A program made the position numbers and the translations under genes. The notes below the pieces were generated by a model that did not search any database, was not told the origin of the DNA, and worked only from the letters and a program-made list of their open reading frames with translations. From Patescibacteria group bacterium (GTDB taxonomy: Bacteria > Patescibacteriota > Patescibacteriia > UBA9570 > JAHJKD01): a stretch of 64,000 nt of DNA. Positions 5,566 through 36,426 of the stretch are shown here, piece by piece. The stretch covers positions 24,996-88,995 of the forward strand of contig JAZDOC010000006.1 in NCBI GenBank assembly GCA_043798935.1, written 5' to 3'. Numbering within the stretch: the stretch's first letter is position 1; each line of letters starts with the position of its first letter.

Positions 5566-5577
5566 ATTTGTATTATA

Positions 5578-18029: not shown

Positions 18030-19178
18030 ATGATTCAACCTCATGGAAATGTTTTAATAAACAGAGTGTTAAAACCTGAAGATGCTTTAAAAGCCAAAAT
18101 TAAGGCTGATGGTTTAAAGAAGATTAAAATAGACGAAGAGTTAGTAAAAGAAGTTAAAAATATTGCGCGCGGTGTTTTTTCTCCGCTCGATGGTTTTATG
18201 AATAAAGCTGATTTTGAAAGCGTAGTAGAAAATATGCACTTGGCAAATGGCGTGGTTTGGCCTTTACCGTTTGTTTTAGATATTAACGATCAAGATGCAG
18301 AAAGTATTGCTGTAGGAGATCAAATTGCTTTAATAGATGATAATAACGAACCGATTGCCTTAATGAACGTGGAAGATAAATATAATTTTGACAAAGATAA
18401 TTTTGCTGTCAAAGTTTTTAAAACTAATGAATTAGCCCATCCGGGTGCTAAAATGGTGAGCGAAATGTATGATATATTAATTGGCGGTGAAATTGAATTA
18501 ATAGATAATTCTAAAGAGCCGTTTAATAGTTTCAATTTGGATCCGCTAGAAACCAGAACATTATTTAAAGAGCGCGGATGGAATACTGTCGTAGGTTTTC
18601 AAACCAGAAATGCTCCTCATTTAGCTCATGAATATATTCAGAGGTGTGCGCTCGAAATTTGCGATGGTTTATTTGTTAATCCGGTAATCGGCAAGAAAAA
18701 ATCCGGTGATTTTCAAGACCAGGTAATTTTAGATTCATATCAGGCGTTAATTAATAATTTTTTTCCTAAACAGAGAGTAGTAATGAGTATTTTACCGCTT
18801 AAAATGCGCTATGCCGGTCCGCGGGAAGCAATTTTTCACGCTATCGTACGCAAGAACTTTGGTTGTACTCATTTTATCGTGGGGCGCGATCACGCCGGCG
18901 TTGGTAAATATTACGGCACTTATGAAGCGCAAGAAATTTTCGATACAATCGAAGATTTAGGCATGACGATTTTAAAATTTGAACATTCATTCTATTGTAA
19001 AAAATGCCGGGCATTGGGAACCGCTAAAAATTGTCCGCATACCGACGAAGATCGTATTGGACCTTCAGGAACAATTATCAGAGAAATGATATCTAAAGGC
19101 GAACTGGTGCCAGAAGAAATTATGCGCCCGGAAATTTCTAAGGTTTTAATTGATGCCGATAAGACTTTTGTTGATTAA
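18030..19178 (+). CDS. sat: sulfate adenylyltransferase (ATP sulfurylase)
   Basis: GFQTRNAPHLAHEYIQ and VGRDHAGVG signature motifs; 382 aa homo-oligomeric type. Confidence 0.85.
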   Translation: MIQPHGNVLINRVLKPEDALKAKIKADGLKKIKIDEELVKEVKNIARGVFSPLDGFMNKADFESVVENMHLANGVVWPLPFVLDINDQDAESIAVGDQIALIDDNNEPIALMNVEDKYNFDKDNFAVKVFKTNELAHPGAKMVSEMYDILIGGEIELIDNSKEPFNSFNLDPLETRTLFKERGWNTVVGFQTRNAPHLAHEYIQRCALEICDGLFVNPVIGKKKSGDFQDQVILDSYQALINNFFPKQRVVMSILPLKMRYAGPREAIFHAIVRKNFGCTHFIVGRDHAGVGKYYGTYEAQEIFDTIEDLGMTILKFEHSFYCKKCRALGTAKNCPHTDEDRIGPSGTIIREMISKGELVPEEIMRPEISKVLIDADKTFVD

Positions 19179-19187
19179 AAATAAAGC

Positions 19188-20183
19188 ATGAATGAATTAG
19201 AGCAATTAAAAAATAATCGAAAAGGATTGATTATCCATCATTGGGATACGGACGGCTTGTGTTCGGCGGCTTTGCTCAAACGTTTTTTTATTGCATTAAA
19301 TTCTAAGATAGCGCTTGATATAATGCCACCGACCATTAATAATTATTTTTTAACGGCTAGAGAATTCACAGAAATTAAACGCGCAAAATATGACTTCATT
19401 ATTACTTGCGATATAAATTTTCCGCCTAAAGTGGTTTTAGAACTCGAGGCCATTAAACCAAAAAAAGTATTTGTTTTTGATCATCATAAGCAAGATCCGA
19501 TTAAAGAAGTGCATTATTATAATCGGCGTTATCCTAGTAACACTTTAGTATTGGCTGAATATCTGGAATTAGATATGGATTTATTAATCAGCTTAGGTGC
19601 TATCGGCGATAAAGAGGAAAAAATAAAACAAGATAAACAATATTGGCCGTTAATAAATAAAGTATTAAATAATAATAATATAAATTTTGAGCAAGTATTA
19701 CAGATTAGAGATTTAGTTGACGCCAGTTACGTTATTAATGATGCAGATTTAATGCGGAAAGTCATTGATGTATTAGCCATTAATCCGTTATTAATCACTA
19801 AAAATGATGAATTGAAAAATTCATTAAATTTAATTCATAGTGAAATTCAAAGTAAAACAGAGCGAACACCAGATGAAATTATTAATGGGGATGTATTATT
19901 ATTTAATATTGAATCTAATTATAATATTTTATCTCAAGCTACCAGAGTTTTAGCTAGAAAATATCTGAATAAAATAATATTAACTTATTCAAAAAAAGGC
20001 GAGCAGACTAATATATACATTCGTCGTCAAGATTTAGATTTAAATTTATCACCACTTATAACTTGGGCCAGATCGCAGAAATTCAATTCCGGCGGAAAAG
20101 AAGAAGTTGTTGGAATAATAATTAATCAGGATTTTTCTAATATTAAATCTGATTTAGTCAATAAAATAAGAGAATTACTATGA
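19188..20183 (+). CDS. DHH-family phosphoesterase, NrnA-like (candidate 3'-phosphoadenosine-5'-phosphate phosphatase)
   Basis: IIHHWDTDGLCSAALL (motif I/II) and VFVFDHHKQD (DHH motif); about 330 aa with DHHA1-like C-terminal half. Confidence 0.65.
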   Translation: MNELEQLKNNRKGLIIHHWDTDGLCSAALLKRFFIALNSKIALDIMPPTINNYFLTAREFTEIKRAKYDFIITCDINFPPKVVLELEAIKPKKVFVFDHHKQDPIKEVHYYNRRYPSNTLVLAEYLELDMDLLISLGAIGDKEEKIKQDKQYWPLINKVLNNNNINFEQVLQIRDLVDASYVINDADLMRKVIDVLAINPLLITKNDELKNSLNLIHSEIQSKTERTPDEIINGDVLLFNIESNYNILSQATRVLARKYLNKIILTYSKKGEQTNIYIRRQDLDLNLSPLITWARSQKFNSGGKEEVVGIIINQDFSNIKSDLVNKIRELL

Positions 20184-21565
20184 GCCAAAAAAAATTATTT
20201 GTTTTGGGGCTTGATTGTGCCACGCCGCAATTTTTATTTGACGAGTATTTAGATGATTTGCCGACATTTAAAAAATTATTTTCTCAAGGAGCCTATGGTA
20301 AATTGCGAAGCACTATTCCGGCTATTACGGTTCCGGCTTGGATGAGCATGATGACAAGCCAAACCCCGGGAGATTTAGGAATCTATGGATTTCGTGGGCG
20401 GCGGGCCGGCTCGGGGTATAACGACATGTTTATTGCCAGTGCTGAGCATGTTCAATATAAAAAAGTTTGGGATTATCTAAACATGGCTGGATTAAAAACC
20501 GGCATGCTAAGCGTGCCGTTAACCTATCCGCCGCAGACCGTGGATGGATTTATGGTAAGCGGTTTTATGACGCCATCGCTGGAAAGTGAATTTACTTATC
20601 CCAAAGAATTAAAACAAGAAATTGCCGATGTGGTAGGCGAATATATTTTTGATTTTGCAAATCGTTCAACCGAAGCTCCGGAAAAGATTTTGGAAAAAAT
20701 TTATGAGATGACCGATAAACGACATAAATTAATCAAGTATTTTATCAAAAACAAGCAGTGGGATTTTTTAATGATGGTAGAAATGGGCGTGGATCGGATT
20801 CATCATTACATGTGGAGCTATGTGGATCCAAAGCATCCTAAATTTCAGGGAGAAAATAATAAATTTAAAAACAGCATTAAAGAATATTATCAGCATATTG
20901 ACCGGCAGCTAAGTGAAATTTTAGATTTATTACCGAAAGAGTGTAGTGTTATGATAGTGTCTGATCACGGCGCTAAGGCCATGGATGGTATGTTTTTAAT
21001 TAATGAATGGCTAATTAAAGAAGGGTATTTAGTATTAAAAAATTATCCAACTAGCGTCACTCGGCTGGAAAAATGTGATATCGACTGGTCTAAAACCAAA
21101 GCTTGGGCTTGGGGCGGTTTTTATTCCCGCATTTTTATTAATGTTAAAAGACGCGATCCGGAAGGTATCGTGGAAGATTTTGAAACAGAGCGAGATTCAT
21201 TAGCCCGAAAATTAAAAGCCATAACCGATGATCACGGTAATAAATTAATAAACATTGTCGCACCGGCTAATGAATTATACAATGATCCCCAAGGCGATGT
21301 ACCGGATTTATTGGGATTTTTTGGAGATTTATCTTGGCGACCAGGCGGTACCGTCGGGCATAATAAAATTTATATTCATGAAAACGATACTGGCCCTGAT
21401 GATGGTGTGCACGATTGGAACGGAATATATGCTTTTTGGCAGCCCGAGAAAACCGGAAGCGGGTTATTGCCGGAGTCGAGTATTTTAGATATTGCGCCAA
21501 CTATTCTAAATTATTTTGGAGTGGATATCCCAAAAGATTTTAAGGGAAAAATAATTAATTACTAA
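20180..21565 (+). CDS. alkaline-phosphatase-superfamily protein, nucleotide pyrophosphatase/phosphodiesterase (PF01663-like)
   Basis: LFVLGLDCATPQF N-terminal metal/nucleophile motif, MIVSDHGA motif; paralog of 25914-27518. Confidence 0.6.
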   Translation: MSQKKLFVLGLDCATPQFLFDEYLDDLPTFKKLFSQGAYGKLRSTIPAITVPAWMSMMTSQTPGDLGIYGFRGRRAGSGYNDMFIASAEHVQYKKVWDYLNMAGLKTGMLSVPLTYPPQTVDGFMVSGFMTPSLESEFTYPKELKQEIADVVGEYIFDFANRSTEAPEKILEKIYEMTDKRHKLIKYFIKNKQWDFLMMVEMGVDRIHHYMWSYVDPKHPKFQGENNKFKNSIKEYYQHIDRQLSEILDLLPKECSVMIVSDHGAKAMDGMFLINEWLIKEGYLVLKNYPTSVTRLEKCDIDWSKTKAWAWGGFYSRIFINVKRRDPEGIVEDFETERDSLARKLKAITDDHGNKLINIVAPANELYNDPQGDVPDLLGFFGDLSWRPGGTVGHNKIYIHENDTGPDDGVHDWNGIYAFWQPEKTGSGLLPESSILDIAPTILNYFGVDIPKDFKGKIINY

Positions 21566-21571
21566 AAAAAT

Positions 21572-22177
21572 ATGACCGAACAAAAAGCAACAAACATCAC
21601 TTGGCATGATGGCGAAATTAATAAAAAAGAGCGTGAGCAGTTATTAAAACAAAAAGGAGTAATTTTGTGGTTTACGGGTCTTTCCGGATCTGGAAAGTCT
21701 ACTGTAGCTGTAGCTTTAGAAAAGAAGCTGTTTGAAATGGGTCACATTAATTACCGTTTAGACGGCGATAATATTCGCCATGGCCTCAATAAAGATTTAG
21801 GCTTTTCACCAGAAGATAGAGTAGAAAATATTCGTCGTATTGGTGAAGTATCAAAATTATTTGCCGATGCTGGCGATATTGTTTCGACATCATTTATTTC
21901 GCCGTATCTTAAAGATCGTGAGATTGTGCGTGATTTAGTTCCAGCCGGAGAGTTTATAGAAGTTTATGTAAAATGTTCGCTGGCTGAATGCGAAAAGCGC
22001 GATCCTAAAGGATTATACAAAAAAGCCCGCGCCGGAGAATTAAAGCAGTTTACAGGCATAGACGCGCCTTATGAAGAGCCAATTAACCCTGAAATGGTGG
22101 TAGAAACCGACAAACAGGCTGTAGAGCAAGTGGTGGATAAAATATTAGCTTATTTAAAAGAAAAAGGCATAATTTAA
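21572..22177 (+). CDS. cysC: adenylyl-sulfate kinase (APS kinase)
   Basis: P-loop [13 protein letters not shown], 201 aa, typical CysC length and motifs. Confidence 0.9.
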
Positions 22178-22259: not shown

Positions 22260-24017
22260 ATGTTAAAATCGTTACAACGTTTCTGGATAATTACAATTGT
22301 TATCTGTCTAATTTTAGGCGCATTTTTTTCATATATTTATTTTCAGGATCATGCTTGGGGTACCTGGGGAGACGATAGCGCCGGATACATTTATTTGTGG
22401 GGCAAAATGGATCAAAATAAAGATTTAGTTTATCAAGAGCCTTTAACCGTAGCGGCGCTTAAATTTTTTGGTAATGAAAAATTAGCACGCTGGACCACGC
22501 CGACTCATCATGAAATCATCTCGCCGTCGGGGTATGTCGCATCCAAATATCCGATAGGCCTTTCACAAATAATGCTATTGTTTTCTCGGCTCTTTCAAGA
22601 CGATAAGGCTATTTATTATGTCTTGCCATTACTAGCAACAATAAATTTAATTCTTGTATATTTAATATCACTAATATTTTTTAAAGACATTAAATACAAA
22701 CACTTTTTTAGTTTGTTGCCGGCCTTTATGCTGGGCCTGGCTAGCTTGTATTATAATTATGCTATTTCTCAGCCCATGCGGGAAATTCCGTCTATGTTTT
22801 TCTTATTGGCTGGTTATTTATTTTTATTGCTGGCAGTTGAATATTATGGTTCACAAAATCAAAAGAAAGATAAAATATTTTTTTATACTTTAATAATATT
22901 AGCATCATTATTTGCCGGCTATAGCTTAAACGTTAGAGAAACCAGTATCATGATTTTGCCGGCTTTTTTAATAATGTTGTTTAGTATATCTAATAGAAAT
23001 GCTGAGCCCCAAGAAAAAAATAAAAACATTAAGTTTAAAATTAAATTAGCATTATTAGCTTTATTAATGTTAATTATCGCTTATATACCGTCTTTTATTA
23101 ATTCGGCTGATATTACCCAATTTAAAGAAAAATTCAGAGCTAAAGATATCACGTCTATTGCCATTACTTCAAATTTTGATCATATCAGTTCATTTAGCTT
23201 GCAAAATGTTTTTAATAACCAGGGAAAATTCAGGCCCGGGCGCGGTGCTTTACCGCATTATTGGGGCGTAATGAATGATAATTTAGCTGTCTGGCCATGT
23301 TTTATTGTTCTAGCAATAATAGGACTATATTCTATTTATAAAAAAAATAAATGGCTATCGGCCAGTTTACTACTATGGATTCTGGGTGTATTAATAATTT
23401 TTTCTTTATGGATAAACCCTTATTCCAGATATATTTTGCCACTGTTTCCAATATTAGCCATTTGCGGAAGTTATGGATTGTATGCAGTGTGTTTTAAAAT
23501 TGTACCACATTTTTTCAAGAATAAACGCCTACAGTTTTTAGTTTGTTTAATAATATTATTATCTTTAATTATTTCATATCTACCGGCAATAATCGATATT
23601 AAAACTAATTTTAATGAAAATGAAGACGGCGAAGAAAAGTTGGTGTTTAAAGCAATCTCTGAAAATGATTTATTTAGTTTAAAGGGTTTAGGAGAAAAAA
23701 TTTATACTGATAATAAAACTGATAAACCGCCATTAGTGGTTTTTAGCGGTACTTGGCAATACGGAATTTCTGAAACTTTTGAAGCCCATACTGGAATTCA
23801 AGGTATCCACATGCCACTTGAAGACAAGAAAAATGTTTTCGATAAAGAACAGGTAAAAGATTTTTTTACCCAAGAAGTGTTTCCAAATTATAATGTATAT
23901 TTTTGGATAGACGCGACCAGTAAATCAAACAGCGTTGATTTTATTAATTATTTTAAAGTACAACCTAAATATTCTTATTCATTAACATTTGCTAACCCCA
24001 CTATTTATGGAAATTAA
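22260..24017 (+). CDS. multi-pass membrane protein, putative GT-C glycosyltransferase (ArnT/PMT-like)
   Basis: 585 aa, about 10 N-terminal TM helices with early acidic loop motif (WGDDSAGY), large C-terminal extracytoplasmic domain. Confidence 0.4.
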   Translation: MLKSLQRFWIITIVICLILGAFFSYIYFQDHAWGTWGDDSAGYIYLWGKMDQNKDLVYQEPLTVAALKFFGNEKLARWTTPTHHEIISPSGYVASKYPIGLSQIMLLFSRLFQDDKAIYYVLPLLATINLILVYLISLIFFKDIKYKHFFSLLPAFMLGLASLYYNYAISQPMREIPSMFFLLAGYLFLLLAVEYYGSQNQKKDKIFFYTLIILASLFAGYSLNVRETSIMILPAFLIMLFSISNRNAEPQEKNKNIKFKIKLALLALLMLIIAYIPSFINSADITQFKEKFRAKDITSIAITSNFDHISSFSLQNVFNNQGKFRPGRGALPHYWGVMNDNLAVWPCFIVLAIIGLYSIYKKNKWLSASLLLWILGVLIIFSLWINPYSRYILPLFPILAICGSYGLYAVCFKIVPHFFKNKRLQFLVCLIILLSLIISYLPAIIDIKTNFNENEDGEEKLVFKAISENDLFSLKGLGEKIYTDNKTDKPPLVVFSGTWQYGISETFEAHTGIQGIHMPLEDKKNVFDKEQVKDFFTQEVFPNYNVYFWIDATSKSNSVDFINYFKVQPKYSYSLTFANPTIYGN

Positions 24018-24678
24018 TAAAATCAGCGATATTAAAAAATATCAAAAAGCGCACGATAGTATTTTTTCCAAACTAATTACCCGTAAAATTTCAGTTATTT
24101 TTAGCTTTTATTTAATTAAGCGTTGGAAGCAGGTAACACCTAATAAAGTTTCGCTAATTTCTTTTATTACAGCCGTGGTAGCTATCGGATTATTTCTGGC
24201 TGATAATTATTTTGTTCGATTACTCGGCGTAGTTTTTTTACAAATTTCTTTTGCCTTAGATTGCTCTGATGGAGAAATTGCTAGAATTAAAGAAATGAGT
24301 TCTAAATTCGGCGCTTGGATGGATAGTGTTTTAGACAGGTTTAAAGAAGTAATGATGTTTGGAGCATTAACTTTTATTGTTTATAATTATGCCTGGGATA
24401 CGTCTGCTTTATTAATCGGATCTTTGGCAATAATTTTATGGCTATTAGTGGGATTTTTAAGAGAAGCAAAAAAGTCTTCCTGGCCGGAAAAGCGCACAGC
24501 GGAATTATATATTACTGATAACATATATATCGGTACCGTAGATACTACTATTTATTTTGTATGCTTTGCCATAATAATCCACATGGAATTGATGGCGTTA
24601 TGGGTTTTTGCAATTTTGGGATTAATACTACTAGTGAAACAAATTATTAGTGCTTGGCAGCTGGAGAAAAAGATTTAA
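23989..24678 (+). CDS. CDP-alcohol phosphatidyltransferase family protein
   Basis: D-x2-DG-x2-AR-x7/8-G-x3-D-x3-D signature: DCSDGEIARIKEMSSKFGAWMDSVLDRFKE; 6 TM helices. Confidence 0.7.
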   Translation: MLTPLFMEINKISDIKKYQKAHDSIFSKLITRKISVIFSFYLIKRWKQVTPNKVSLISFITAVVAIGLFLADNYFVRLLGVVFLQISFALDCSDGEIARIKEMSSKFGAWMDSVLDRFKEVMMFGALTFIVYNYAWDTSALLIGSLAIILWLLVGFLREAKKSSWPEKRTAELYITDNIYIGTVDTTIYFVCFAIIIHMELMALWVFAILGLILLVKQIISAWQLEKKI

Positions 24679-25966
24679 AATATTTTGTCTGCATAAACAG
24701 CAGAATTATAAAGAGAATAGATAAAGCGATAGTTGAAACTCTGGTTAATATAAAATTACTATTCGGAATGAAATTGTAAAATTCTGTCGAAATGAAAATA
24801 ACAACACTAATAATACTTAAATAAACTTTTTTTTCTTTTAAAAAATAATAGATTAACCATATTAGAATTGGTACGGTCCAAAATAAATATTGAGCATGAA
24901 CACTTTTATTGAACAATAGAAAAAAAGTCATCATCAGAGCATAATCATTTAAATATTGTTGCCCAGAAAGAGTAACTCTTTTTTTATACATTAAGTATAA
25001 AATTGTTGTAAAGAAAAAAATTGTTGATAAAAGAAATAAATCATCAAAAGTTGATATTAAAGTTTGATTGGGCAATGATAAAAAGGGCAAATAATTTTTT
25101 TTAATTGCGACTCGAACAAGGCTATATAAAGAAACTCCTGATGTTAGATCGTTTATGCCATTAACAAAATATTCCCAAAAAACATTTTTCCAGAAATAAT
25201 AAATGCCATTTATTTTAAAATACGGAACAGTCGCGATCACTAATAATATTGATGAAAAAACATAAGATGTCAGGGCACGCCATTGTTTTTTAATAATAAA
25301 ATATGGAACGAAAATAACCGGAAATATTTTTAAGGCTGTTGCTATAGCCAAGATACTGCCAGCCATAATCGGTTTTTTTTTATAAAGAGCAATAAAAGTG
25401 GTGATTAATAAAAATAATATCACCCCATTAATTTGGCCGGTTCCCATTAAGCTGTTAATTGGTGCGGCAAAACATAATAGAAGCAATGAAATGGAAAAAA
25501 GCGGATGGAATAATTTTTTTCGATCAATTAAAAAATAGATACCGGCATAATAAGTAATAATAAATAGCAGTGAATTAAACTAGAGCCAATAGTGAACTAA
25601 TATTTTAAATTTAAAATGCGAAAAAAATAAAAAGAAAAGCGCTGCTTGCGGTGGATATAAAAATTTTGTTCCGCCGCTATCGAATACTTTTCTAACTTCC
25701 GGTCTAAAAAACGGACGATTATAGATGTCGACGGCGGTTAAAGGAGTTAATATACCGGTTAATACTTTTGATGATGTATAATAAACGCACATATCGCTCC
25801 GACCATAGCCTTTGTTATTAAGATAAACACCGTTGTAATAAAGAAAAAAAATAATCGCTATTATAAACAGAACAATACAAAATATCTTATAAAATTTTAA
25901 TAAATTATATTTGTTAAAATTTAATGTCATTGATAAGATTATTAATCGCTTGTTTTTCAGTTTCAA
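24647..25966 (-). pseudogene. GT87/DUF2029-like GT-C membrane glycosyltransferase interrupted by one in-frame TAG (codon at 25580-25582)
   Basis: ORFs 25580..25966 and 24647..25486 are in the same frame; manual translation shows no other stop between them (amber then FNSLLFIITYYAGIYFLIDRKKLFHPFFSISLLLCFAAP...); N-terminal part has the YPPqAAlFF motif typical of DUF2029. Confidence 0.4.
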
Positions 25967-27518
25967 ATATTATTTCTTTTTGTTCCTTAAAAATTTCGGT
26001 TATTACTTTGCCGTCCATGTCGCGCGGGATAGGAATATTTAATAAATGTAATATAGTAGGTGCAAGGTCGGTAATATTATTGTCTTCTAACTCTGTATTT
26101 GATTTAATATTTGGTCCTAGAGCCAAGAAAATACCGTCCATATCATGGTGGTATTTATTACTGTCCTGATTATCATTAAAAATTTTACCTGAATAGAAAT
26201 TACCGTCTAGCCAGTAATTTTTTAAATCGAAAAATAAATCAGGCGCATCTATGGGGGCATTTTTTCCGTAAACATCTTCTTTGGTTAATATTTTTTCGAT
26301 AACTTTTTCTCCTGAAGCATCAGTAAGTTTTTCTAACTTTTGTTTAATTTCGGTTCTGATTTTTAAATATTCTTTTTCGGTTTTAATTATACCGTCGTGA
26401 TATTTTTTTTGATAATTTAGATATACATTAGTAATATGACCGCCTTTTGGGATACAAGCATAAGTTTTGCTGTAGTCAACTCCAATGTTAACTTTTAAAT
26501 TGATCGGTAGATATTTTTTAATGAATTTTTTATACAGCCAAAAACTAAATTTTTCTAACCAGGGAAAGTACGATAAAATTTTAAAAGCGCTTTTTCCTAA
26601 ATTAATTGCCTTGTATTTTGATTGTGTTTTAGTTGCTTCACGTCCGCGACGAGTGACACGGGTTTTAAATTGTTCTGAACCAATTTTAGAAGTGAGATAT
26701 CCTTCTTTTTCTAACCATTTATTGATATAGAAAATTTTGTGAAAAGAAGTGAATCCATGATCGCTCATCATAAGTAAAGTTGTATCAGGAGGCAAGTTTT
26801 CTAAAAACCATCCTAAATAACCATCGATTATTTTATATATTTCTAATGATTTTGGATCGCGATCATTAACAACTTCATCAAAACGAGCGTGCTGAAGCCA
26901 ATCGGTAGCGGAAAAAAGATAAAAGAAAAAATCCCATTTTTTTGTAGTAAATATTTTTTTAACAGCTGCTAAATGATCGTGTTCCATTTGACCGATTTCT
27001 TCAATGTATGCTTCTTGTCTTTCTTTCATGCGCAAAGATTCATTAGGAGTGAGTTTGTATTTTTTTAGTTCTGGAAATTCTTCAATTAATGAATTTGGCC
27101 AAATCCATTGGTCGCCTTGTGTAAGCAAAGAAGTAATAACAATGTGTTTATCTTTTAATCGTGGTGGCCAGGAATTAGGCAGGTTAATTGTAATGGGTTC
27201 TAATCCTTGTTCGGAAATAATTTCGTAAACTGTTTTGCCTTTTATATCACGGGAAGATGTGATACGAAAATCAGTTAGACTGCCATTAGATAATAAAAAA
27301 TCATAAACACCATGCTTGCCGGGTGTTTTACCGGTAGCGAAAGTAGTCCAGGCAGTACCGGTCATGGGTGGAATCGTGGATTTTAAAATTCCATGACTGC
27401 TTAATTCTAATATTTTTTTAAAATTAGGCATTACGCCTTCTTCAGCCAGCGGTTTTAAAATTTTATATGTTCCGCCATCGAGGCCGATTACAACAACTTT
27501 ATTGTTTGCTTGTGTCAT
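25914..27518 (-). CDS. alkaline-phosphatase-superfamily protein, nucleotide pyrophosphatase/phosphodiesterase (PF01663-like), paralog 2
   Basis: VVVIGLDGGTYKIL and MMSDHGF motifs; alignable with 20180-21565 (LKSTIP..T..AW....T..TPG..G.Y.F). Confidence 0.6.
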   Translation of the reverse strand: MTQANNKVVVIGLDGGTYKILKPLAEEGVMPNFKKILELSSHGILKSTIPPMTGTAWTTFATGKTPGKHGVYDFLLSNGSLTDFRITSSRDIKGKTVYEIISEQGLEPITINLPNSWPPRLKDKHIVITSLLTQGDQWIWPNSLIEEFPELKKYKLTPNESLRMKERQEAYIEEIGQMEHDHLAAVKKIFTTKKWDFFFYLFSATDWLQHARFDEVVNDRDPKSLEIYKIIDGYLGWFLENLPPDTTLLMMSDHGFTSFHKIFYINKWLEKEGYLTSKIGSEQFKTRVTRRGREATKTQSKYKAINLGKSAFKILSYFPWLEKFSFWLYKKFIKKYLPINLKVNIGVDYSKTYACIPKGGHITNVYLNYQKKYHDGIIKTEKEYLKIRTEIKQKLEKLTDASGEKVIEKILTKEDVYGKNAPIDAPDLFFDLKNYWLDGNFYSGKIFNDNQDSNKYHHDMDGIFLALGPNIKSNTELEDNNITDLAPTILHLLNIPIPRDMDGKVITEIFKEQKEIIFETEKQAINNLINDIKF

Positions 27519-28203
27519 ATTGCTTGAATTGTTTATAATTTAGATAAATAGAAAAACAAGTATAAATAAATTGAATGATTGCATACATTACTAGTAATAA
27601 AGAAACTTGGTTAAGCAGTGCAAATATAATTATTAAACCATAACGATCCGCTTCTTTAAATAGCAGAGTGTGTTTAAGCGATCGAATGAATTGGCAAGGA
27701 ATTTTTTTAATAATAACTTTTTCAGATATTTGAGCTTTATATTTTAATTCGAAAGATTCGCGCCAATAACGCGACATGTTTCTTAAATATTGGAAACTCA
27801 GTGCAAAAAAAGCGAAGACATAAACTAAGCATTCGTGATTAATTTGATAGGCACCCCAGGCTAATCCAAAAAGAATAAGTACATCTTTAATTTTATCAGT
27901 ATAATGATCATACCATTCTCCTAATTTAGATTGTTTGCTAATCAAGCGCGCTAGTTGCCCATCTACACAATCAAATATTAAAGTTATTAGTAATAATAAA
28001 GAACCCACAATCAATTGATTATTAGCAAATAGCCAGGCAGTAATAATACCGGAAATAAATGAGATAGTTGTGAAAAAGTTAGGTGATAACCATTTTATTT
28101 TAGTAGCCATTTTGGCAATCAAAAAAGATATTTGACCAGCAAAATAATATGTTAGCAAACTATCTTCTTTCTTTATGACGTCGCGCGGGTTGTTATAGCT
28201 CAT
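27499..28203 (-). CDS. CDP-alcohol phosphatidyltransferase family protein, paralog 2
   Basis: DCVDGQLARLISKQSKLGEWYDHYTDKIKD signature; 6 TM helices. Confidence 0.7.
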   Translation of the reverse strand: MSYNNPRDVIKKEDSLLTYYFAGQISFLIAKMATKIKWLSPNFFTTISFISGIITAWLFANNQLIVGSLLLLITLIFDCVDGQLARLISKQSKLGEWYDHYTDKIKDVLILFGLAWGAYQINHECLVYVFAFFALSFQYLRNMSRYWRESFELKYKAQISEKVIIKKIPCQFIRSLKHTLLFKEADRYGLIIIFALLNQVSLLLVMYAIIQFIYTCFSIYLNYKQFKQYDTSKQ

Positions 28204-29245
28204 TTAATAACTGATTAATATTAAAATCATCCAAATTTAATTTTTCTAGAATTGTATATCTATCAGGGCGGGTTTGAGGGGCGAATTTCAGCACTTCTAT
28301 CATTTGGCTATGAGTAAGGTTGATATCTTGATAATGAGTTGGTAGGCTAAGGTTTTTAAATAATTTTTTGTAATTATTATAATAAGCACTATTTCTTAAT
28401 TTTTCGGTAATAATTATTCCTAAAGCTACTTGTTCGCCATGCATGGCCGTGTTTGGAAATAGTTTGTCAATGGCGTGGGAGATTTTATGCTCTGCACCAG
28501 AACAGGGGCGAGAGTTTCCGGAAATATGCATAGCTATACCGCTTAATACTAAGCCGTTAATTAAAGTGAGTAAAAATTTATCTGAGTATATATTAATGTT
28601 ATAATCATCATCGACATTGCCGTAAATTAAATCTGCGGCCGAATAAGCAAGCGACATGGCGAAATCATCAATTTTTTCTTGTTTTTCCATGTGGGCTAGT
28701 TTCCAGTCGGCTAGTGCTGAAAAATTTGATAATAAATCACCTGTGCCAGCTTGAATATTTTTAAGCGGTGCTTTTTTTATTATATCTAAATCCACAATAA
28801 TGCCTGTTGGCATATTAACGCCCATGCTTTGTTTTAAATTATTACCGTCTGTTAAGACTGCAATTGGCGAAGCGATACCGTCGTGCGATGGAGAAGTCGG
28901 TACAGAAATATAATTTACATTAGCCTTAGTGGCAGCGTATTTTCCTACATCCAGAACTTGGCCTCCGCCAATAGCGATTATGGCATCGTGGGCATTAGTT
29001 AGAATTTGATCTTTAATTTTTTCCGCCGCCGTAATAGAACTGTCATTACTAATTAAAATATTTTGAGGTTGACATAATGAATTTAAATTTATATTTTCCA
29101 AATTTTTAACGGTTTTACTAATAAGTATTAAAGGGTTATTAGCAATTAAATTTTCTTCAATTAAAATATTTTTAATATCATTAATAATATTTTTTTCAAT
29201 TTTGATAAATAAGGGAACTTGTGTATCGCGGAAATTTACCGACAT
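28193..29245 (-). CDS. glycerol-1-phosphate dehydrogenase [NAD(P)+]-like (AraM/EgsA family, Fe-ADH/DHQS-like fold)
   Basis: GGGQVLDVGKYAA glycine-rich NAD motif, SVPTSPSHDGIASP (G1PDH-type substrate/metal motif), GAEHKISHAIDKL His pair; 350 aa. Confidence 0.55.
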   Translation of the reverse strand: MSVNFRDTQVPLFIKIEKNIINDIKNILIEENLIANNPLILISKTVKNLENINLNSLCQPQNILISNDSSITAAEKIKDQILTNAHDAIIAIGGGQVLDVGKYAATKANVNYISVPTSPSHDGIASPIAVLTDGNNLKQSMGVNMPTGIIVDLDIIKKAPLKNIQAGTGDLLSNFSALADWKLAHMEKQEKIDDFAMSLAYSAADLIYGNVDDDYNINIYSDKFLLTLINGLVLSGIAMHISGNSRPCSGAEHKISHAIDKLFPNTAMHGEQVALGIIITEKLRNSAYYNNYKKLFKNLSLPTHYQDINLTHSQMIEVLKFAPQTRPDRYTILEKLNLDDFNINQLLNEL

Positions 29246-29249
29246 ATGT

Positions 29250-29984
29250 TTACGGAATTATTTGTTGAATTAATTGTTTGGCGTTTTTTAAGTCTTCATG
29301 AGTATCAATTTCCATGGCCGGTAGGCCCGAAGTGGAAATTTTATAAATTGGAGCATCTTGATCAATAAAATGCTGTAAAGCATCTTCATAATATAAGCTC
29401 GGATCATTTTGCATCACAGTTTCTAAGCTATTAATTAACGCTTGTTTAAATTCACTGCCTAATTTCATGAGGCCAATATATTCGCCGTTAGCTATTTCAG
29501 GTTTTAAAGTTTTGTGAATTTTGTGAATTTTATTATCTTTATCGATGTAAACTTTCATTTCCTCATCAGATAATTTTTTAAAATCATCGATGGCCATAAC
29601 ATTTTTTTGCGGATGATCGAGTAGCGCTTGCAGAATATTTTTGTGAAAAATAGTGTCAGAATTAATAATAATAAAATCGTTAGAAAAAATTGGTTTAGCA
29701 GAGTAAAGAGAATGGATATTACCTTTGCTGTTATATTCGTTATTATAAATTATTTCAATAGAAACATCGGGATTGTTTTTTTTATATTTTTCTGAAAAAG
29801 CTACCACATGTTCATGGCCATGCCCGGTTAATAAGCTAAATTTTTTCAGACCACAAGCTTGGCAGGTATCTAAAATATGGTGCAAAATTTCTTTATCACT
29901 AATTTTAAGTAAGCTTTTTGGATGTTTATCAGTGAGAGGTCGAAGGCGTTTAGATTCGCCGGCAGTTAAAATTAAAACTTGCAT
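29250..29984 (-). CDS. sugar/alcohol-phosphate nucleotidyltransferase (NTP_transferase family)
   Basis: N-terminal LILTAGESKRLRPLTDKHPKSLL (G-x-G-x-R-L motif), 244 aa. Confidence 0.6.
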   Translation of the reverse strand: MQVLILTAGESKRLRPLTDKHPKSLLKISDKEILHHILDTCQACGLKKFSLLTGHGHEHVVAFSEKYKKNNPDVSIEIIYNNEYNSKGNIHSLYSAKPIFSNDFIIINSDTIFHKNILQALLDHPQKNVMAIDDFKKLSDEEMKVYIDKDNKIHKIHKTLKPEIANGEYIGLMKLGSEFKQALINSLETVMQNDPSLYYEDALQHFIDQDAPIYKISTSGLPAMEIDTHEDLKNAKQLIQQIIP

Positions 29985-30000
29985 AATAATTTTGGTAGTA

Positions 30001-31488
30001 TTAATTGTTTATAGCATCAGATTCAGGATTGCTTGACGCATTCTTTTGAAATTTATTAGGAATTAATTGTTTAAATAATGCCATGTCGTAAGCGTCGAGA
30101 AACTTAAAAACCCATAAAAAGAAGCCGTAAATTAAGGCTCCTAATAATATAGTAAATATAACATTTAACTTGTCCATTGTAAAATAGATTACCGTGCCCA
30201 TAATAATGCTCGCCAGAACGGGTTTAATGAGTTTGAGTAGATAAGAGAAAACGTTTAATTTAAGATAATAAAGATCAGTAATAGTGAAAGCGATTCTGAT
30301 AATAAATTCAGTAGCGACAGTACCAATAACAGCGCCCATGAAGCCATATGCATTAATTAGAAAATAATTAATAATTATTAAAAAAATAAATGAAAAAATT
30401 TGGATAATATTTTCCTGTTTTTGTTTATCAATGGCGGTTAAAGATTGCCCGGAAACATTACCGGCAAAGCGAGCGATTAAAAACAGCGCAAAATATTTTA
30501 GGGCAAGGGCCGCTGGGGCATAACCGGGCTTACTGTAGATTAAATGAATAATAGGGTCGGCCAATAAAAAAGTGCCGATTACTATTGGAATACTTAAAGC
30601 ATTTAAATATCGAAAAATTAAAAGGTGAATTCGCTTATACTTGTTAATGTCTAAAGTACTGTACTTAAACATTAATGGTAAAGCAATTTGAAAAATCATT
30701 TGTGGCAGAATTAGAATTAAAATAATTAATTTAGCCGCCGCTGAATAAAGACCAGCCTCGGTATTGCCTTTAAAATACTGCAACATCAATATACTGATTT
30801 GAAAATAAGCAATTAGAAATATATCGTAAATGGAATATTTAAGGCCGTCTTTAACCATGGGCCATAAAAGTTTTAAATTGAATGTTGGTTTCACAAGTTT
30901 TAAGTCGTAAAGGAATACCGATAGTATAAATAACAGATTCATAATCAGCGGCGCCCCGGCTATCAAAATAATACCGAAATTTCGGTCATTAATAATATAG
31001 CTAATAGCTAAAGTTAAAATGAAGATACAAAAACCCGTAATGACTTCAAAAATTGAAACCACTTTCATTTTTAGCATAATACGTAAAACAGCTCGAAATG
31101 ATTTTCTAAATTCAAAGAAAACAGTTGCCAAACCTAAGAGTACTACCAAAATCATGGTTTGCGAGTCGTAGTGCAACACTACGGCCATCACAATTGTTAT
31201 AATAAAGAAAAAAGTCGAAGCAATGGATTGAATAATAATAGAATTTCCGAAATAAAGGCTGATTGAATCTTTATGGCGTGATCCTTCGCGCATTAGGAGA
31301 GTGGTAGAGCCAATATCGTTGGCTACTAGAAAGGTATTGGTTAAGGCGAGGGCTGTAGAATACATACCGAATTTTTCCACGCCAGCATAACGCGCGATAA
31401 TAATTGCAACCAGAGCATTAAAAATGCGATATAAAACACGAGCGATTAAAACCGCAAAAGCGTTATTGAATAATTTGCGAAACATCAT
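30001..31488 (-). CDS. polysaccharide flippase, MOP/Wzx family
   Basis: 495 aa, about 14 TM helices. Confidence 0.6.
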   Translation of the reverse strand: MMFRKLFNNAFAVLIARVLYRIFNALVAIIIARYAGVEKFGMYSTALALTNTFLVANDIGSTTLLMREGSRHKDSISLYFGNSIIIQSIASTFFFIITIVMAVVLHYDSQTMILVVLLGLATVFFEFRKSFRAVLRIMLKMKVVSIFEVITGFCIFILTLAISYIINDRNFGIILIAGAPLIMNLLFILSVFLYDLKLVKPTFNLKLLWPMVKDGLKYSIYDIFLIAYFQISILMLQYFKGNTEAGLYSAAAKLIILILILPQMIFQIALPLMFKYSTLDINKYKRIHLLIFRYLNALSIPIVIGTFLLADPIIHLIYSKPGYAPAALALKYFALFLIARFAGNVSGQSLTAIDKQKQENIIQIFSFIFLIIINYFLINAYGFMGAVIGTVATEFIIRIAFTITDLYYLKLNVFSYLLKLIKPVLASIIMGTVIYFTMDKLNVIFTILLGALIYGFFLWVFKFLDAYDMALFKQLIPNKFQKNASSNPESDAINN

Positions 31489-32372
31489 AAGTTAATTTGT
31501 TTTTTACACACGGCCGATAATAATCCGTATTTAATAGCCAGAATATTTAATAATTTAAAGAATTTATAATTAATAAATATTTTTGCCGGCCAACGACAAA
31601 CTGTTAATCCGAGCTTACAAATAATCCGTAAACATTGAGCAGGAAAATTATTTTGATGGGCTAATAAATGTGGAAAATATTTTTTGATAAAGCTTGGATT
31701 ATGAAGAGAAGTGATTAAAAAATTATTATAATTTTGTTTGATGCGTTTTTTTATAATTACATCTAAACAAATTTCATTAACGTGATTAATAATAACATTT
31801 TCGGAAAAGATAATTGTTTTATTATGCTCGTGTAAGAGCGCACCGAATTCCATATCGCCGCCGTACTGAAGCCGGCTATTAAAACCATTAAGTTTTTCAA
31901 AGACGTGTTTTTTAATAGCAAAATTTCTAGTATCAATGCGGCTTAATGTTTTATTATTATTGTTTAGAAAATCATGGGTAATTTGTTCATAAAATTTTTG
32001 TTCAAACTCGGCAATATTATTTTTATTTATACCTAATATTTTACCCATAAGGCTGTCTACATTTTGATCGAATGTTTTATCAATCTCTTTTAACCAATTG
32101 CTAGTCACTTGGCAGTCTGAATCAATAAAAATTAATATCTCACCACCAGCGTTATTAGCACCGGTGTTTCTAGCTTGATAGGATCCTGTTATTGGTTCAT
32201 GGACGTATTTAACCAAGTATTTATCAGCAAAATAGCGTAATTGCTTTTCGTGATTATTATCTACTAAAATTACTTCAAAATCAGAAATTGGATAATCTAA
32301 ATTTTGAATTGATTTTAAGCAATCATTAAGATATTTTGAAGATGAACAGGGGATAATAATTGAATATTTCAT
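31485..32372 (-). CDS. glycosyltransferase family 2
   Basis: SIIIPCSSSKYLNDCLKSI and DSDC (DxD-type) motifs. Confidence 0.7.
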   Translation of the reverse strand: MKYSIIIPCSSSKYLNDCLKSIQNLDYPISDFEVILVDNNHEKQLRYFADKYLVKYVHEPITGSYQARNTGANNAGGEILIFIDSDCQVTSNWLKEIDKTFDQNVDSLMGKILGINKNNIAEFEQKFYEQITHDFLNNNNKTLSRIDTRNFAIKKHVFEKLNGFNSRLQYGGDMEFGALLHEHNKTIIFSENVIINHVNEICLDVIIKKRIKQNYNNFLITSLHNPSFIKKYFPHLLAHQNNFPAQCLRIICKLGLTVCRWPAKIFINYKFFKLLNILAIKYGLLSAVCKKQINL

Positions 32373-32408
32373 TGTCTTATTATACTATAATGCATTAGTA
32401 AAATCAAC

Positions 32409-32437
32409 TTGGCAAAATCGGTTAATTAATCTATAAT
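32409..32437 (+). promoter_or_regulatory. sigma70 promoter TTGGCA-17-TATAAT
   Basis: 5/6 -35, 17-nt spacer, perfect -10; 8 nt before the ATG at 32445, in a divergent intergenic region. Confidence 0.55.
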
Positions 32438-32444
32438 AACGGCA

Positions 32445-34878: not shown

Positions 34879-36426
34879 TTGGCTATTATATCAAGCTTGA
34901 TTTATTTTGGCAATTTATTTATAATAATGAAGATGAAAATAGAGAAAATTACGAAAATTTGGTCAATTTTTTTATTTGTGGCGATTGTGGCTCTTTTTTT
35001 GTTTTTACTTAATAATTACTTTGTTTTTAACGGAAAATTAACAATTTCATACGATTTTTGCTCGCCAGCAACACTCATTACTGAATTTACGCCTACTGGC
35101 CGAGCCTTAGCCATTGAAAAAAACCTAAAAACGGGGGAATGTTATCAGAGAATCGTCGGAGAGCCGGTTTATTTCACTTCTTATGTACCCCGTTCGTTTG
35201 ATACGGCGGAGGTGGCTATAAATTATCAAAACCCCAGCCAAAGCATTTTAGAGCTTGGTGTGCAAAAATCCATTGATTGGAATTTCGAGTTAAAGCCTTT
35301 GGAAAATAAATTTATCGATAATTCGACTTGGGATAGAATAAACACTGATAATATAATTTTTTTACAAAAACAAAAAAAATATAATAGCTATCAGGAATTT
35401 TTAGATAATGTTCCGACTGATAAAAAAATAGCTACTTATAATTATAGTTTGCCGTATAAATTTGTGATCGACGATTATGAGCCAAGCGACAAACAGCTTG
35501 AAATTAATACGGCACTGCGAGGCCGGCATGAATTTTATACTTATTTAGGCAAAGGCGAAGATCTTGATTTTACTTTCTATTGGCAAGATATTAACTGGGC
35601 GCTGAGCGCGGATAATTTTATAGTGCGTATTTACAAAGATGACACTGAAATTCAAACCGAAGTCGAGCCCGGAGACGGCAATACCGATATTAGTGGCACG
35701 GCTTCACTGGTTAAAGAGAAACAAATAAAACTAACTAATTTAAGCGGTGGGTTATTCCGGATAGTAGTTGATGTTAGTAATGATGTTTTTATTCGAAAAA
35801 TTATCACTAAGCAACATTTGCTAGTAGTAAAAAACAGAATTTTTTTAGCTGACAGCGAGGCCCATAAAAATAGCATTTCAGATTTAACTCTGGATCCTAC
35901 CACGTTATATACTAACAGTGATATTTTATTAGCGCGTACTGATCATTCGGAAAGTTTGCAAAGCATAAGCATTAACAACGACAAATTAGAACTTATTCGC
36001 ACCGGTGAAGATTTTAAATGGAGTGATGATAATAATTTAGGTTCCATAAAAATTATTAACGCTGTTTTAAATGATGTATACATTCAAGGATTTGGCTATT
36101 ATTCTTTTACGCCCGAAAGTTTTTTTGATCCCGACTATGGCATAGATATTTTGCGCACCGACATGAATATGGATAATTACGATTATTTAATTGCCAAAGA
36201 TTATTCTGCCCCGACAGCTGTTCGCAGTTGGAACGCGGCTACGCAAAGTTTTGTTTTAGACACGGTACCGGGCGACAGAAAAACATTAAATTTTATTCTG
36301 TCCGCACCCGGAATCACCGATATTAATAGCCAGATTATAGTTAAAAATATTGAAATTAAATTTAAAAAAGATCCATTAAATTTAAAAAATTTATGGCCGC
36401 GGCTAAAGTTTAAATTAGGCTTATGA
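34879..36426 (+). CDS. hypothetical exported protein with an N-terminal TM anchor (true start possibly the MKMKIEK methionine)
   Basis: 515 aa; one N-terminal hydrophobic helix then a large hydrophilic domain; no recognisable motif. Confidence 0.35.
   Translation: MAIISSLIYFGNLFIIMKMKIEKITKIWSIFLFVAIVALFLFLLNNYFVFNGKLTISYDFCSPATLITEFTPTGRALAIEKNLKTGECYQRIVGEPVYFTSYVPRSFDTAEVAINYQNPSQSILELGVQKSIDWNFELKPLENKFIDNSTWDRINTDNIIFLQKQKKYNSYQEFLDNVPTDKKIATYNYSLPYKFVIDDYEPSDKQLEINTALRGRHEFYTYLGKGEDLDFTFYWQDINWALSADNFIVRIYKDDTEIQTEVEPGDGNTDISGTASLVKEKQIKLTNLSGGLFRIVVDVSNDVFIRKIITKQHLLVVKNRIFLADSEAHKNSISDLTLDPTTLYTNSDILLARTDHSESLQSISINNDKLELIRTGEDFKWSDDNNLGSIKIINAVLNDVYIQGFGYYSFTPESFFDPDYGIDILRTDMNMDNYDYLIAKDYSAPTAVRSWNAATQSFVLDTVPGDRKTLNFILSAPGITDINSQIIVKNIEIKFKKDPLNLKNLWPRLKFKLGL

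Follow-up and report, generated by a model that had tools for sequence, protein, structure and literature searches.

A glycerol-1-phosphate dehydrogenase homologue coupled to a LicC-like nucleotidyltransferase and a CDP-alcohol transferase in a glycan island of Patescibacteria: a candidate route to a glycerophosphate-decorated surface glycan

AraM is the experimentally proven sn-glycerol-1-phosphate (G1P) dehydrogenase (G1PDH) of B. subtilis, and EgsA is the enzyme of the same family from M. jannaschii. Other bacterial G1PDH homologues are known phylogenetically and have repeatedly been cited, as signs that bacteria may have lipids of the archaeal type, in debates on the lipid divide and on the membranes of the last universal common ancestor (PMC6431249). 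Here, we analyse one such homologue and its neighbours in a stretch of 64,000 nucleotides (nt), hereafter the window, from a Patescibacteria group bacterium (GCA_043798935.1, contig JAZDOC010000006.1, positions 24,996-88,995 of the forward strand). A sequence-only reading of this window had proposed that four co-directional genes, encoding a nucleotidyltransferase, a dehydrogenase with EgsA/AraM motifs, a CDP-alcohol transferase and a member of the AlkP superfamily, form an archaeal-flavoured cassette that decorates a polysaccharide with a polyol phosphate. We propose that this cassette is a supply-and-transfer line for the glycerophosphate decoration of a lipid-linked cell-surface glycan, a reading to which we give a probability of roughly 0.55.

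The logic of this proposal is shared with the TagD/TarD and TagB/TagF pathway, in which glycerol phosphate is activated by CTP, glycerophosphate is put onto a lipid-linked glycopolymer and the product is exported. Here, however, every enzyme comes from another family: glycerol phosphate would be supplied by a G1PDH homologue rather than by GpsA/GlpK, a LicC-like cytidylyltransferase stands in the place of the TagD family with its HxGH motif (PMC8262930), and an integral-membrane CDP-alcohol phosphotransferase stands in the place of TagF. The predicted stereochemistry also differs, being sn-1 for the cassette and sn-3 for wall teichoic acid. No member of the TagD or TagF (Glyphos_transf) families was found in the cassette or among the scanned open reading frames (ORFs) of the window of at least 150 aa, and a TagF-family partner was seen only in two of the related loci described below (L009 and L014).

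Other described systems resemble single parts of the locus. The LicC/LicD phosphocholine system resembles the prediction made here in that a cytidylyltransferase of the LicC type prepares a small phospho-alcohol for attachment to a surface polymer, whereas LicD belongs to another family than the transferase of the window. The capsule loci with Gtp1-3 and WchX, for CDP-2-glycerol, also combine a dehydrogenase with a cytidylyltransferase; this likeness is drawn by description only, and the wchX-encoded glycerol phosphotransferase is taken, again by description, to differ from the transferase of the window too. The pneumococcal kinase/phosphotransferase LicA/Gtp3 has no equivalent in the cassette. 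Finally, Af2299 and the IPCT/DIPPS of Archaeoglobus fulgidus, which use soluble CDP-glycerol or CDP-inositol, share with the locus the CDP-alcohol transferase signature, a protein size that fits the class with six transmembrane segments (6-TM) and a cytidylyltransferase module, which is fused there and a separate gene here. They differ from it by a low identity, by the lack of an inositol-phosphate synthase here and by the context, which is glycan export here rather than osmolyte synthesis.

The dehydrogenase and its coupling to a LicC-like nucleotidyltransferase

The four ORFs, of 244, 350, 234 and 534 aa, were found on the minus strand exactly where the sequence-only reading had placed them (Table 1), and all four proteins passed the Pfam gathering threshold. 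They form the tail of a six-gene operon with the order GT2 glycosyltransferase, Wzx flippase, nucleotidyltransferase, dehydrogenase, CDP-alcohol transferase (transferase 1) and nucleotide pyrophosphatase/phosphodiesterase-type protein (NPP; NPP1), in which the spacings range from -20 to +16 nt: -4 nt between GT2 and flippase, +16 nt between flippase and nucleotidyltransferase, and then +4, -11 and -20 nt, the last three genes overlapping in the same direction. A chance origin of these ORFs is far excluded by their length in DNA of 32% G+C, by identities of 40-68% and by the same gene order in dozens of relatives. Proteins identical to those of the cassette are on record from a 102-kb contig of a Patescibacteria metagenome-assembled genome (MAG).

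Table 1. Coordinates in the window of the cassette genes and of the features discussed with them
Feature	Position (nt)	Strand	Length (aa)	Evidence and remarks
LicC-like nucleotidyltransferase	29250-29984	-	244	Pfam NTP_transferase 5e-13
G1PDH-family (bacterial subfamily) NAD(P)H dehydrogenase	28193-29245	-	350	Pfam Fe-ADH_2 1.4e-31
CDP-alcohol phosphotransferase 1, 6-TM size class	27499-28203	-	234	Pfam CDP-OH_P_transf 6.2e-15
NPP1, divergent NPP-type (AlkP superfamily) phosphodiesterase/phosphotransferase	25914-27518	-	534	Pfam Phosphodiest 1.1e-32
Wzx-type (Polysacc_synt/MOP) flippase	30001-31488	-		Pfam Polysacc_synt 5.2e-18; about 14 hydrophobic segments
GT2 glycosyltransferase, first operon gene	31485-32372	-		Pfam Glycos_transf_2 3.5e-22
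CDP-alcohol phosphotransferase 2, Af2299-like	23989-24678	+	229	Pfam 3.2e-13; divergently placed
GT-C-like (PMT/ArnT-like) membrane protein	22260-24017	+	585	About 10 hydrophobic segments; overlaps start of transferase 2
APS kinase	21572-22177	+		Pfam APS_kinase 3e-69
NPP2, paralogue of NPP1	20180-21565	+		Pfam Phosphodiest 3.6e-42; BLASTP against NPP1 8e-46, 27% identity
DHH-family phosphoesterase, candidate pAp phosphatase	19188-20183	+		Pfam DHH 1.3e-9
ATP sulfurylase	18030-19178	+		Pfam ATP-sulfurylase 5.7e-92 and PUA_2
Canonical Sulfotransfer_1/3 protein	3345-4259	-		Adjoins Polysacc_synt/MatE-type flippase, 4261-5619 (-)
GT87 gene, possibly split or frameshifted	24647-25486	-		Pfam profile matched only from position 62
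Small ORF with one hydrophobic segment	25580-25966	-	128	93 nt upstream of GT87 gene, same strand; overlaps end of NPP1 by 53 nt

Profile searches with the dehydrogenase gave 283 bits (2.3e-84) for the NCBIfam model of G1PDH, NF002022, against 86 bits for GldA, 57 bits for haloarchaeal glycolaldehyde reductase and 38 bits for aroB, and with these scores an identity as 3-dehydroquinate synthase (DHQS) or glycerol dehydrogenase was rejected. The solved structures nearest by sequence were 3ce9 (171 bits) and M. jannaschii G1PDH (4RGQ; 153 bits, 1e-43), followed by another archaeal G1PDH, 5FB3. A structural comparison with the M. jannaschii enzyme, which the sequence-only reading had suggested, pointed the same way: the AlphaFold model of the dehydrogenase (predicted local distance difference test, pLDDT, 94) aligned in Foldseek with TM-scores of 0.80-0.86 to M. 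jannaschii G1PDH with bound dihydroxyacetone phosphate (DHAP) and NADPH (4rgq/4rgv/4rfl), at 33% identity, and with TM-scores of 0.77-0.84 to 5fb3. Identities were only 18-20% to glycerol dehydrogenases and 22% to B. subtilis AraM, the window enzyme being thus nearer to the archaeal enzyme than to AraM. In an alignment of 41 homologues, D170, H253, H269, H257, S173-N174, S245-R246-P247, R326 and R329 were invariant or near-invariant, and we take D170, H253 and H269 to be metal ligands, by homology with glycerol dehydrogenase and DHQS. At all of the 17 family-invariant positions, the window dehydrogenase and M. jannaschii G1PDH carry identical residues. Judging from profile, fold and residues alike, the dehydrogenase belongs with G1PDH, as its motifs had first suggested, and stands well apart from both glycerol dehydrogenase and DHQS; it would most likely convert DHAP into G1P.

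To the best-scoring structure, 3CE9, a separate remark applies. It is a Clostridium structural-genomics entry deposited as 'glycerol dehydrogenase' and belongs to a context-free Clostridium subgroup that includes the protein of a C. butyricum plasmid (L092); in this group, two of the arginines are replaced (R246S and R326K). The homologue on plasmid pDV of N. vulgaris Hildenborough (L091), whose gene adjoins that of a radical SAM/SPASM maturase, has lost other invariant residues, with three changes among the 17 positions. The three proteins probably have different substrates.

The genes around the dehydrogenase were then compared across relatives. One relative, L001, came from a scan of genome contigs with the single protein, and 80 further loci, with dehydrogenases of 32-47% identity, came from an alignment-based scan of metagenomes; 50 metagenome loci in which the dehydrogenase gene is flanked on either side by 700 bp or more were taken as informative. 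A nucleotidyltransferase homologue adjoins the dehydrogenase in 30 of these 50 loci, which are mostly high-G+C soil contigs, and of the 30, 19 have a CDP-alcohol transferase as well and two a TagF-type transferase in its place. The natural unit is thus not the set of four genes: what stays invariant is the pair of nucleotidyltransferase and dehydrogenase, which the CDP-alcohol transferase usually joins to form a trio. In relatives from the candidate phyla radiation (CPR) with dehydrogenases of 43-59% identity (L001, L002, L006, L094, L095 and L096), the order is Wzx, nucleotidyltransferase, dehydrogenase, CDP-alcohol transferase and NPP. The sequence-only reading had named two results that would speak against it, a dehydrogenase that groups outside the G1PDH family and genes that are not kept together in related genomes; instead, the dehydrogenase groups with G1PDH and the genes stay together in its CPR relatives. 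All loci with the trio context fell into one clade of a neighbour-joining tree, with the window protein and a Streptomyces gene, whereas context-free loci fell into the other clade, with M. jannaschii G1PDH.

Beyond CPR, the pair occurs with changing partners. In two loci of Actinomycetota (L009 and L014), the pair alone lies beside a TagF-family Glyphos_transf gene, without any kinase or phosphatase, and in Schekmanbacteria (L007) the trio is accompanied by a GT2 gene. A MAG of Woesearchaeota (L008, 3333-8056) has a B12-binding radical SAM protein, a CDP-alcohol transferase, a nucleotidyltransferase fused to an HAD domain (Hydrolase_6/Hydrolase_like) and the dehydrogenase, adjoining a flippase. 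On plasmid p1 of Streptomyces fungicidicus (L090, NZ_CP023408.1, 192857-199912), a block adjoining the hopanoid genes hpnCDE comprises a CDP-OH_P_transf-DUF5941 fusion, a cytidylyltransferase, the dehydrogenase, a CDP-alcohol transferase, a GT2 and the permease and ATPase of a TagGH-like ABC transporter. In a synteny survey from 2026, this block of Streptomyces (araM, nucleotidyltransferase, CDP-alcohol phosphatidyltransferase, GT2, tagG, tagH) figures among genes classed as functional orphans (PMC13118837). The sequence-only reading had not recognised the cassette as a characterised pathway, and our search of the open-access literature likewise returned no biochemical characterisation, no characterised pathway of this composition and no paper on DUF5941. 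Two further CPR loci (L004, 7001-10555, and L005; dehydrogenase 47% identical) carry a variant in which the G1PDH homologue and a GpsA-type glycerol-3-phosphate dehydrogenase each stand behind their own nucleotidyltransferase, followed by a CDP-alcohol transferase, and no NPP gene was found in this variant cassette; both enantiomers of glycerol phosphate may be activated there side by side.

The most constant neighbour of the dehydrogenase across phyla, the nucleotidyltransferase, carries the N-terminal motif TAGESKRLRPLTDKHPK, which fits (A/G)Gx(G/S)xR...PK. Its best match in the PDB was LicC, a CTP:phosphocholine cytidylyltransferase (1jyk, 6.6e-11), followed by a phosphonate cytidylyltransferase fusion (6pd1), and both of these activate small phospho-alcohols and not sugar-1-phosphates. 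Scores stayed far below all NCBIfam equivalog cutoffs, and the Streptomyces orthologue is named 'phosphocholine cytidylyltransferase family' by NCBI. We infer from homology and gene coupling that the protein is a CTP:glycerol-1-phosphate cytidylyltransferase, in keeping with the role of phospho-alcohol activator that had been proposed for it. Since its gene is translationally coupled to that of the dehydrogenase, the product of the latter would be activated as a CDP-alcohol rather than prenylated. In this the window dehydrogenase differs from EgsA and AraM, and it also forms part of a bacterial subfamily of its own and shows no link to prenyltransferases of the GGGPS/PcrB type. An archaeal ether-lipid reading was rejected on the same grounds: geranylgeranylglyceryl phosphate synthase (GGGPS)/PcrB, a UbiA-type digeranylgeranylglyceryl phosphate synthase (DGGGPS) and CarS were absent from the scanned ORFs and from the annotated loci, and the clade stands apart from the archaeal equivalog.

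A cytidylyltransferase needs a phosphate ester, and neither the cassette nor L009 and L014 have a kinase or phosphotransferase; the product of the dehydrogenase must therefore already be a phosphate ester. In our view, the strongest argument comes from L009 and L014 themselves, since the pair beside a TagF-type Glyphos_transf, without kinase or phosphatase, must on its own deliver a CDP-polyol. Both arguments bear on the idea of the same architecture with a different alcohol, in which the dehydrogenase would yield some other polyol or its phosphate, for example glycerol from dihydroxyacetone on the way to glycerol-2-phosphate and CDP-2-glycerol, as in pneumococcal types 15/23F (Gtp1/Gtp3/Gtp2 and WchX), in which case there would be no G1P stereochemistry. 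According to Wang et al. (2010), Gtp1 is reportedly a dihydroxyacetone reductase and Gtp2 a cytidylyltransferase. Pneumococcal cps loci have gtp1-3 beside the glycerol phosphotransferase gene wchX (PMC1391919, PMC5581491), an arrangement that resembles L009 and L014, where a TagF-type gene joins the pair. Some loci also fuse the nucleotidyltransferase to an HAD domain, a possible phosphotransferase or mutase, and the closest solved structure bears the name 'glycerol dehydrogenase'. Nonetheless, we regard this alternative as quite unlikely, given the lack of a kinase or phosphotransferase in the cassette and in the minimal TagF-linked loci, and given that the window enzyme has kept every one of the 17 invariant M. 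jannaschii positions, whereas the 3CE9 group has lost two arginines.

A proposed route to a glycerophosphate-decorated glycan

Two CDP-alcohol transferases are encoded near each other, one inside the cassette and one divergently placed. Both match the signature D(x)2DG(x)2AR(x)8G(x)3D(x)3D in full, from residue 78 in transferase 1 and from residue 91 in transferase 2; the alignment of CPR orthologues of transferase 1 shows that the four Asp are kept, with AR changed to AK or SR. For both proteins, the best solved relative was Af2299, with 34 bits for transferase 1 and, along the full membrane domain (4o6m), 78 bits for transferase 2. With 234 and 229 aa, the two proteins are of a size expected for the 6-TM class, of which a crude hydropathy plot resolves only 4-6 segments. 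Orthologues of transferase 1 lie 3' of the dehydrogenase gene in CPR loci, with the second nucleotidyltransferase and GpsA in between in L004 and L005, and orthologues of transferase 2 were seen in L001, L002, L004, L006, L094, L095 and L096. As a side observation, the CDP-alcohol transferase encoded downstream in L090, L007 and L036 has Ala or His at the position of the final signature Asp. The donor pocket of Af2299 is small and hydrophilic and holds the glycerol of CDP-glycerol (PMC4634129), in line with the CDP-alcohol transfer put forward in the sequence-only reading; similarity to Af2299 and gene context support CDP-glycerol as the probable donor of the two transferases.

What these transferases act on is less directly indicated by their relatives, and two alternatives bear on it. 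The cassette could make a membrane phospholipid head group, either phosphatidylglycerol from CDP-glycerol and scavenged diacylglycerol, or a product of CDP-diacylglycerol and G1P that NPP1 then dephosphorylates. In favour of this idea, de novo lipid synthesis is generally missing from CPR bacteria, as far as we know. The transferases score best against models of archaetidylinositol-phosphate and PIP (phosphatidylinositol-phosphate) synthases, and NPP1 or the HAD domain, as partners that resemble phosphatases, would suit a step of the phosphatidylglycerol-phosphate (PGP) phosphatase type. Furthermore, phospholipid synthesis is the role of most characterised members of the family, but those that use lipid acceptors carry 3-4 extra helices (PMC4634129), whereas both transferases here, at about 230 aa, are of a size that fits the 6-TM class, which argues against a Kennedy-type transfer to diacylglycerol. 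Lipid-synthase equivalog scores were far below cutoff (73 against 180 and 56 against 170), the pair also partners polymer synthases of the TagF type, exporters, either Wzx or TagGH-like, and glycosyltransferases recur as constant neighbours, and the scanned ORFs of the window include no CdsA besides lacking GGGPS, UbiA-type and CarS proteins. All in all, we consider a phospholipid product improbable.

Even less probable, in our opinion, is diglycerol phosphate, glycerophospho-inositol or a similar soluble phosphodiester, made as an osmolyte by a split version of the archaeal IPCT/DIPPS scheme from a CDP-alcohol and a phosphorylated alcohol with NPP1 as the final phosphatase. It is true that the nucleotidyltransferase and transferases 1 and 2 match the IPCT/DIPPS model NF041135 (79, 64 and 84 bits), that Af2299 and DIPPS, the closest structures, have soluble substrates only, and that a partner of the phosphatase type is present, but these scores are far below the cutoff of 580 bits and no inositol-phosphate synthase exists in the cassette or the window. 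In addition, a cytoplasmic solute would need neither the coupling to Wzx and the GT2/GT4/GT-C setting that are conserved in CPR nor the polymer exporter of Streptomyces. As far as we know, such solutes have been described from hyperthermophiles and not from groundwater or soil CPR bacteria or actinomycetes. A di-inositol phosphate product proper was rejected, with no myo-inositol-phosphate synthase found and all scores far below cutoff.

Under the glycerophosphate-decoration proposal that we prefer, the dehydrogenase would reduce DHAP with NAD(P)H to G1P, as suggested by family, fold and invariant residues, and the cytidylyltransferase would use CTP to turn G1P into the sn-1 enantiomer of CDP-glycerol, as suggested by its LicC-like homology and by gene coupling. 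The small CDP-alcohol phosphotransferases, probably with six transmembrane segments, would next pass glycerophosphate from CDP-glycerol to a hydroxyl at the cytoplasmic face of the membrane, releasing CMP. From the genomic context, the acceptor would most plausibly be one of the sugars in an oligosaccharide that the GT2/GT4 enzymes encoded nearby assemble on a polyprenyl carrier; the co-transcribed Wzx flippase would flip the product, and GT-C-type enzymes would finish it outside. We regard the first three steps as well supported by inference, with the sn-1 stereochemistry and the acceptor as predictions.

Several points weigh against this proposal. The score of the dehydrogenase stays below the equivalog cutoff of NF002022 (413 bits), and context-free archaeal-type proteins from metagenomes, used as a control, reached 471, 433 and 398 bits, whereas all proteins of the trio clade scored 230-304 bits; together, these scores place the dehydrogenase in a distinct and widespread bacterial subfamily of the G1PDH family, and calling the cassette archaeal-flavoured was an overstatement. 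The wider family, moreover, is not functionally uniform, since one protein from haloarchaea that bears the annotation G1PDH is in fact a glycolaldehyde reductase (PMC9700705). All characterised CDP-alcohol transferases of the 6-TM class use soluble acceptors, so that a lipid-linked glycan acceptor would be unprecedented (PMC4634129). Lastly, the NPP1 gene is lacking from most trios outside CPR and also occurs without the cassette (L093), which makes the place of NPP1 in the pathway uncertain; this gene is kept with the others mainly within CPR and in a few loci elsewhere.

If the proposal is correct, it has several implications. The link of bacterial G1PDH homologues to a cytidylyltransferase in most informative loci points to envelope glycopolymer chemistry and would change how their phylogenetic distributions are read. 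If the product is CDP-sn-1-glycerol, the locus would provide a route of a stereochemistry opposite to that of wall teichoic acid, and stereochemistry determines the susceptibility to enzymes such as GlpQ (PMC7086022). Lipoteichoic acid (LTA) is a polymer of G1P (PMC7086022), and Actinobacteria make polyglycerolphosphate LTA although they have no LtaS, the alternative route being unresolved (PMC3196553). A bolder extension, which we hold to be doubtful, is that the trio serves as an LtaS-independent route to such polymers, building chains in the cytoplasm from CDP-sn-1-glycerol for export by Wzx in CPR or by a TagGH-like ABC transporter in Streptomyces, the CPR polymer being sulfated as well. 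If true, this would explain both the LTA of Actinobacteria without LtaS and why most bacterial G1PDH homologues exist, without a link to archaeal-type lipids. The presence of the trio in genetically tractable Streptomyces makes the question of the actinobacterial LTA directly testable.

NPP proteins and the wider CPR module

NPP1 has the residues of a complete catalyst and appears to be a divergent NPP. D14, T48, N112, D206, H210, D253, H254 and H458 are invariant in 48 homologues, and we match them, from the Xanthomonas (Xac) NPP, to a two-metal site, the Thr nucleophile and the Asn. The model (pLDDT 91) had ENPP1/3/5/6/7 and Xac NPP as its best folds in Foldseek (E about 1e-16, 12-16% identity), with an insertion of about 150 residues relative to solved NPPs. 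NPP1 thus has the NPP core fold of the AlkP superfamily, to which both NPPs (ENPP1-7 and the Xanthomonas NPP) and phospho-group transferases (LtaS, GacH and EptA) belong; transfer of G1P via a covalent Thr intermediate is within the reach of this superfamily, as LtaS and GacH illustrate. Characterised NPPs and LtaS-type transferases are typically extracytoplasmic. In contrast to these proteins, NPP1 has no signal peptide and no membrane domain and belongs to PF01663, not to the Sulfatase family of the LtaS type; no signal peptide and no hydrophobic or transmembrane segment was detected in NPP1 or NPP2, and on this ground both are predicted to be cytoplasmic.

The sequence-only reading had given the AlkP-family enzyme a role in remodelling or transferring the phosphodiester, of which our results do not support the remodelling part. 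We see two options, and this is the weakest step of the scheme. Either, with a phosphorylated alcohol as the acceptor, NPP1 would cleave off the terminal phosphate, as PGP phosphatases and the phosphatases of di-inositol-phosphate phosphate (DIPP) do, or it would transfer a phospho-group in the cytoplasm from a nucleotide-activated donor. The first option was considered because a phosphatase-like HAD domain is fused to the nucleotidyltransferase next to the dehydrogenase in the archaeal locus L008; in CPR loci, NPP1 lies 3' of the CDP-alcohol transferase. Half of the 44 best NPP1 homologues (22/44) apparently lie on contigs that also carry a best dehydrogenase homologue, according to matched contig records, and six loci confirm this directly. 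In a separate CPR glycan island with GT2, GT4, Wzx and PMT-like genes (L093, 10001-14998), three tandem NPP1 paralogues of 535 aa were seen without dehydrogenase or CDP-alcohol transferase. It appears that the NPP1 family is generally present, and expanding, in the glycan islands of CPR bacteria.

In CPR, the conserved unit comprises about 12 genes: the cassette together with the second CDP-alcohol transferase, a GT-C-like protein, the second NPP and sulfate-activation genes. The GT-C-like gene adjoins transferase 2 in every locus; its assignment relies on weak PMT_2 matches in four of seven orthologues (best 1.9e-5), with WGDD invariant in the first loop, and a profile search with the 585-aa protein returned no solved relative by sequence. 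The sulfate-activation set, which is complete, and NPP2 together span 18030-22177 (+) and recur in L002, L006, L094 and L096. Within it, the kinase of adenosine 5'-phosphosulfate (APS) takes the same place in these four loci, and the DHH phosphoesterase, which we consider a candidate phosphatase of 3'-phosphoadenosine 5'-phosphate (pAp), takes the same position in L002, L094 and L096. L095 has its sulfurylase between NPP2-like and NPP1-like genes of one operon, and the distant locus L054 (G+C 0.41, DUF1616 neighbours) holds together a flippase, the dehydrogenase, the nucleotidyltransferase, a CDP-alcohol transferase, an NPP2-like protein, APS kinase and an NPP1-like protein.

NPP2 always adjoins the sulfate-activation genes and is kept in L002, L006, L054 and L094-L096. 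That NPP2 might itself be a sulfotransferase is weakened by the canonical Sulfotransfer_1/3 gene in the same island, whose product likely consumes the 3'-phosphoadenosine 5'-phosphosulfate (PAPS) made 14 kb away. Since the CPR module also activates sulfate, the final surface structure is probably doubly anionic, with phosphodiester and sulfate groups. For CPR bacteria, whose cell envelopes have hardly been characterised, this offers a concrete first hypothesis of an anionic polymer on the surface. In L006 (8815-9027), L094 (11813-12022) and L095 (11747-11971), a short ORF of 69-74 aa without a Pfam match separates the gene of the CDP-alcohol transferase from the NPP1- or NPP2-like one; the window has no equivalent, as the CDP-alcohol transferase and NPP1 genes overlap there.

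The surrounding glycan island

The scan of the window against Pfam covered 54 ORFs of at least 150 aa and the one of 128 aa, within the 64 kb of this genome that were seen. It describes one very large glycan island, with three Polysacc_synt flippases, many GT2/GT4/GT-C genes and genes for nucleotide-sugar synthesis, in good accordance with the polysaccharide island in which the sequence-only reading had placed the cassette. In L036 and in every CPR locus, a counterpart of the Wzx gene of the operon lies directly 5' of the nucleotidyltransferase, and in L054 it lies directly 5' of the dehydrogenase; orthologues of the GT2 gene, which overlaps the flippase gene by 4 nt, take the same position in L001, L002 and L096.

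Counts of promoter and terminator sites in the window were no higher than in shuffled controls, the sole suggestive sites being divergent promoter-like hexamers in the intergenic gap at 32373-32444, and a search of the window against Rfam returned no RNA family. Between the cassette and transferase 2, the GT87 gene and the ORF of 128 aa may be the two parts of a split or frameshifted GT87 gene, and no GT87 gene was found at the corresponding position in L002, L006 or L094. Finally, two large proteins of the island had no Pfam match at E <= 0.001, one of 515 aa (34879-36426, +) and one of 746 aa (44460-46700, -).

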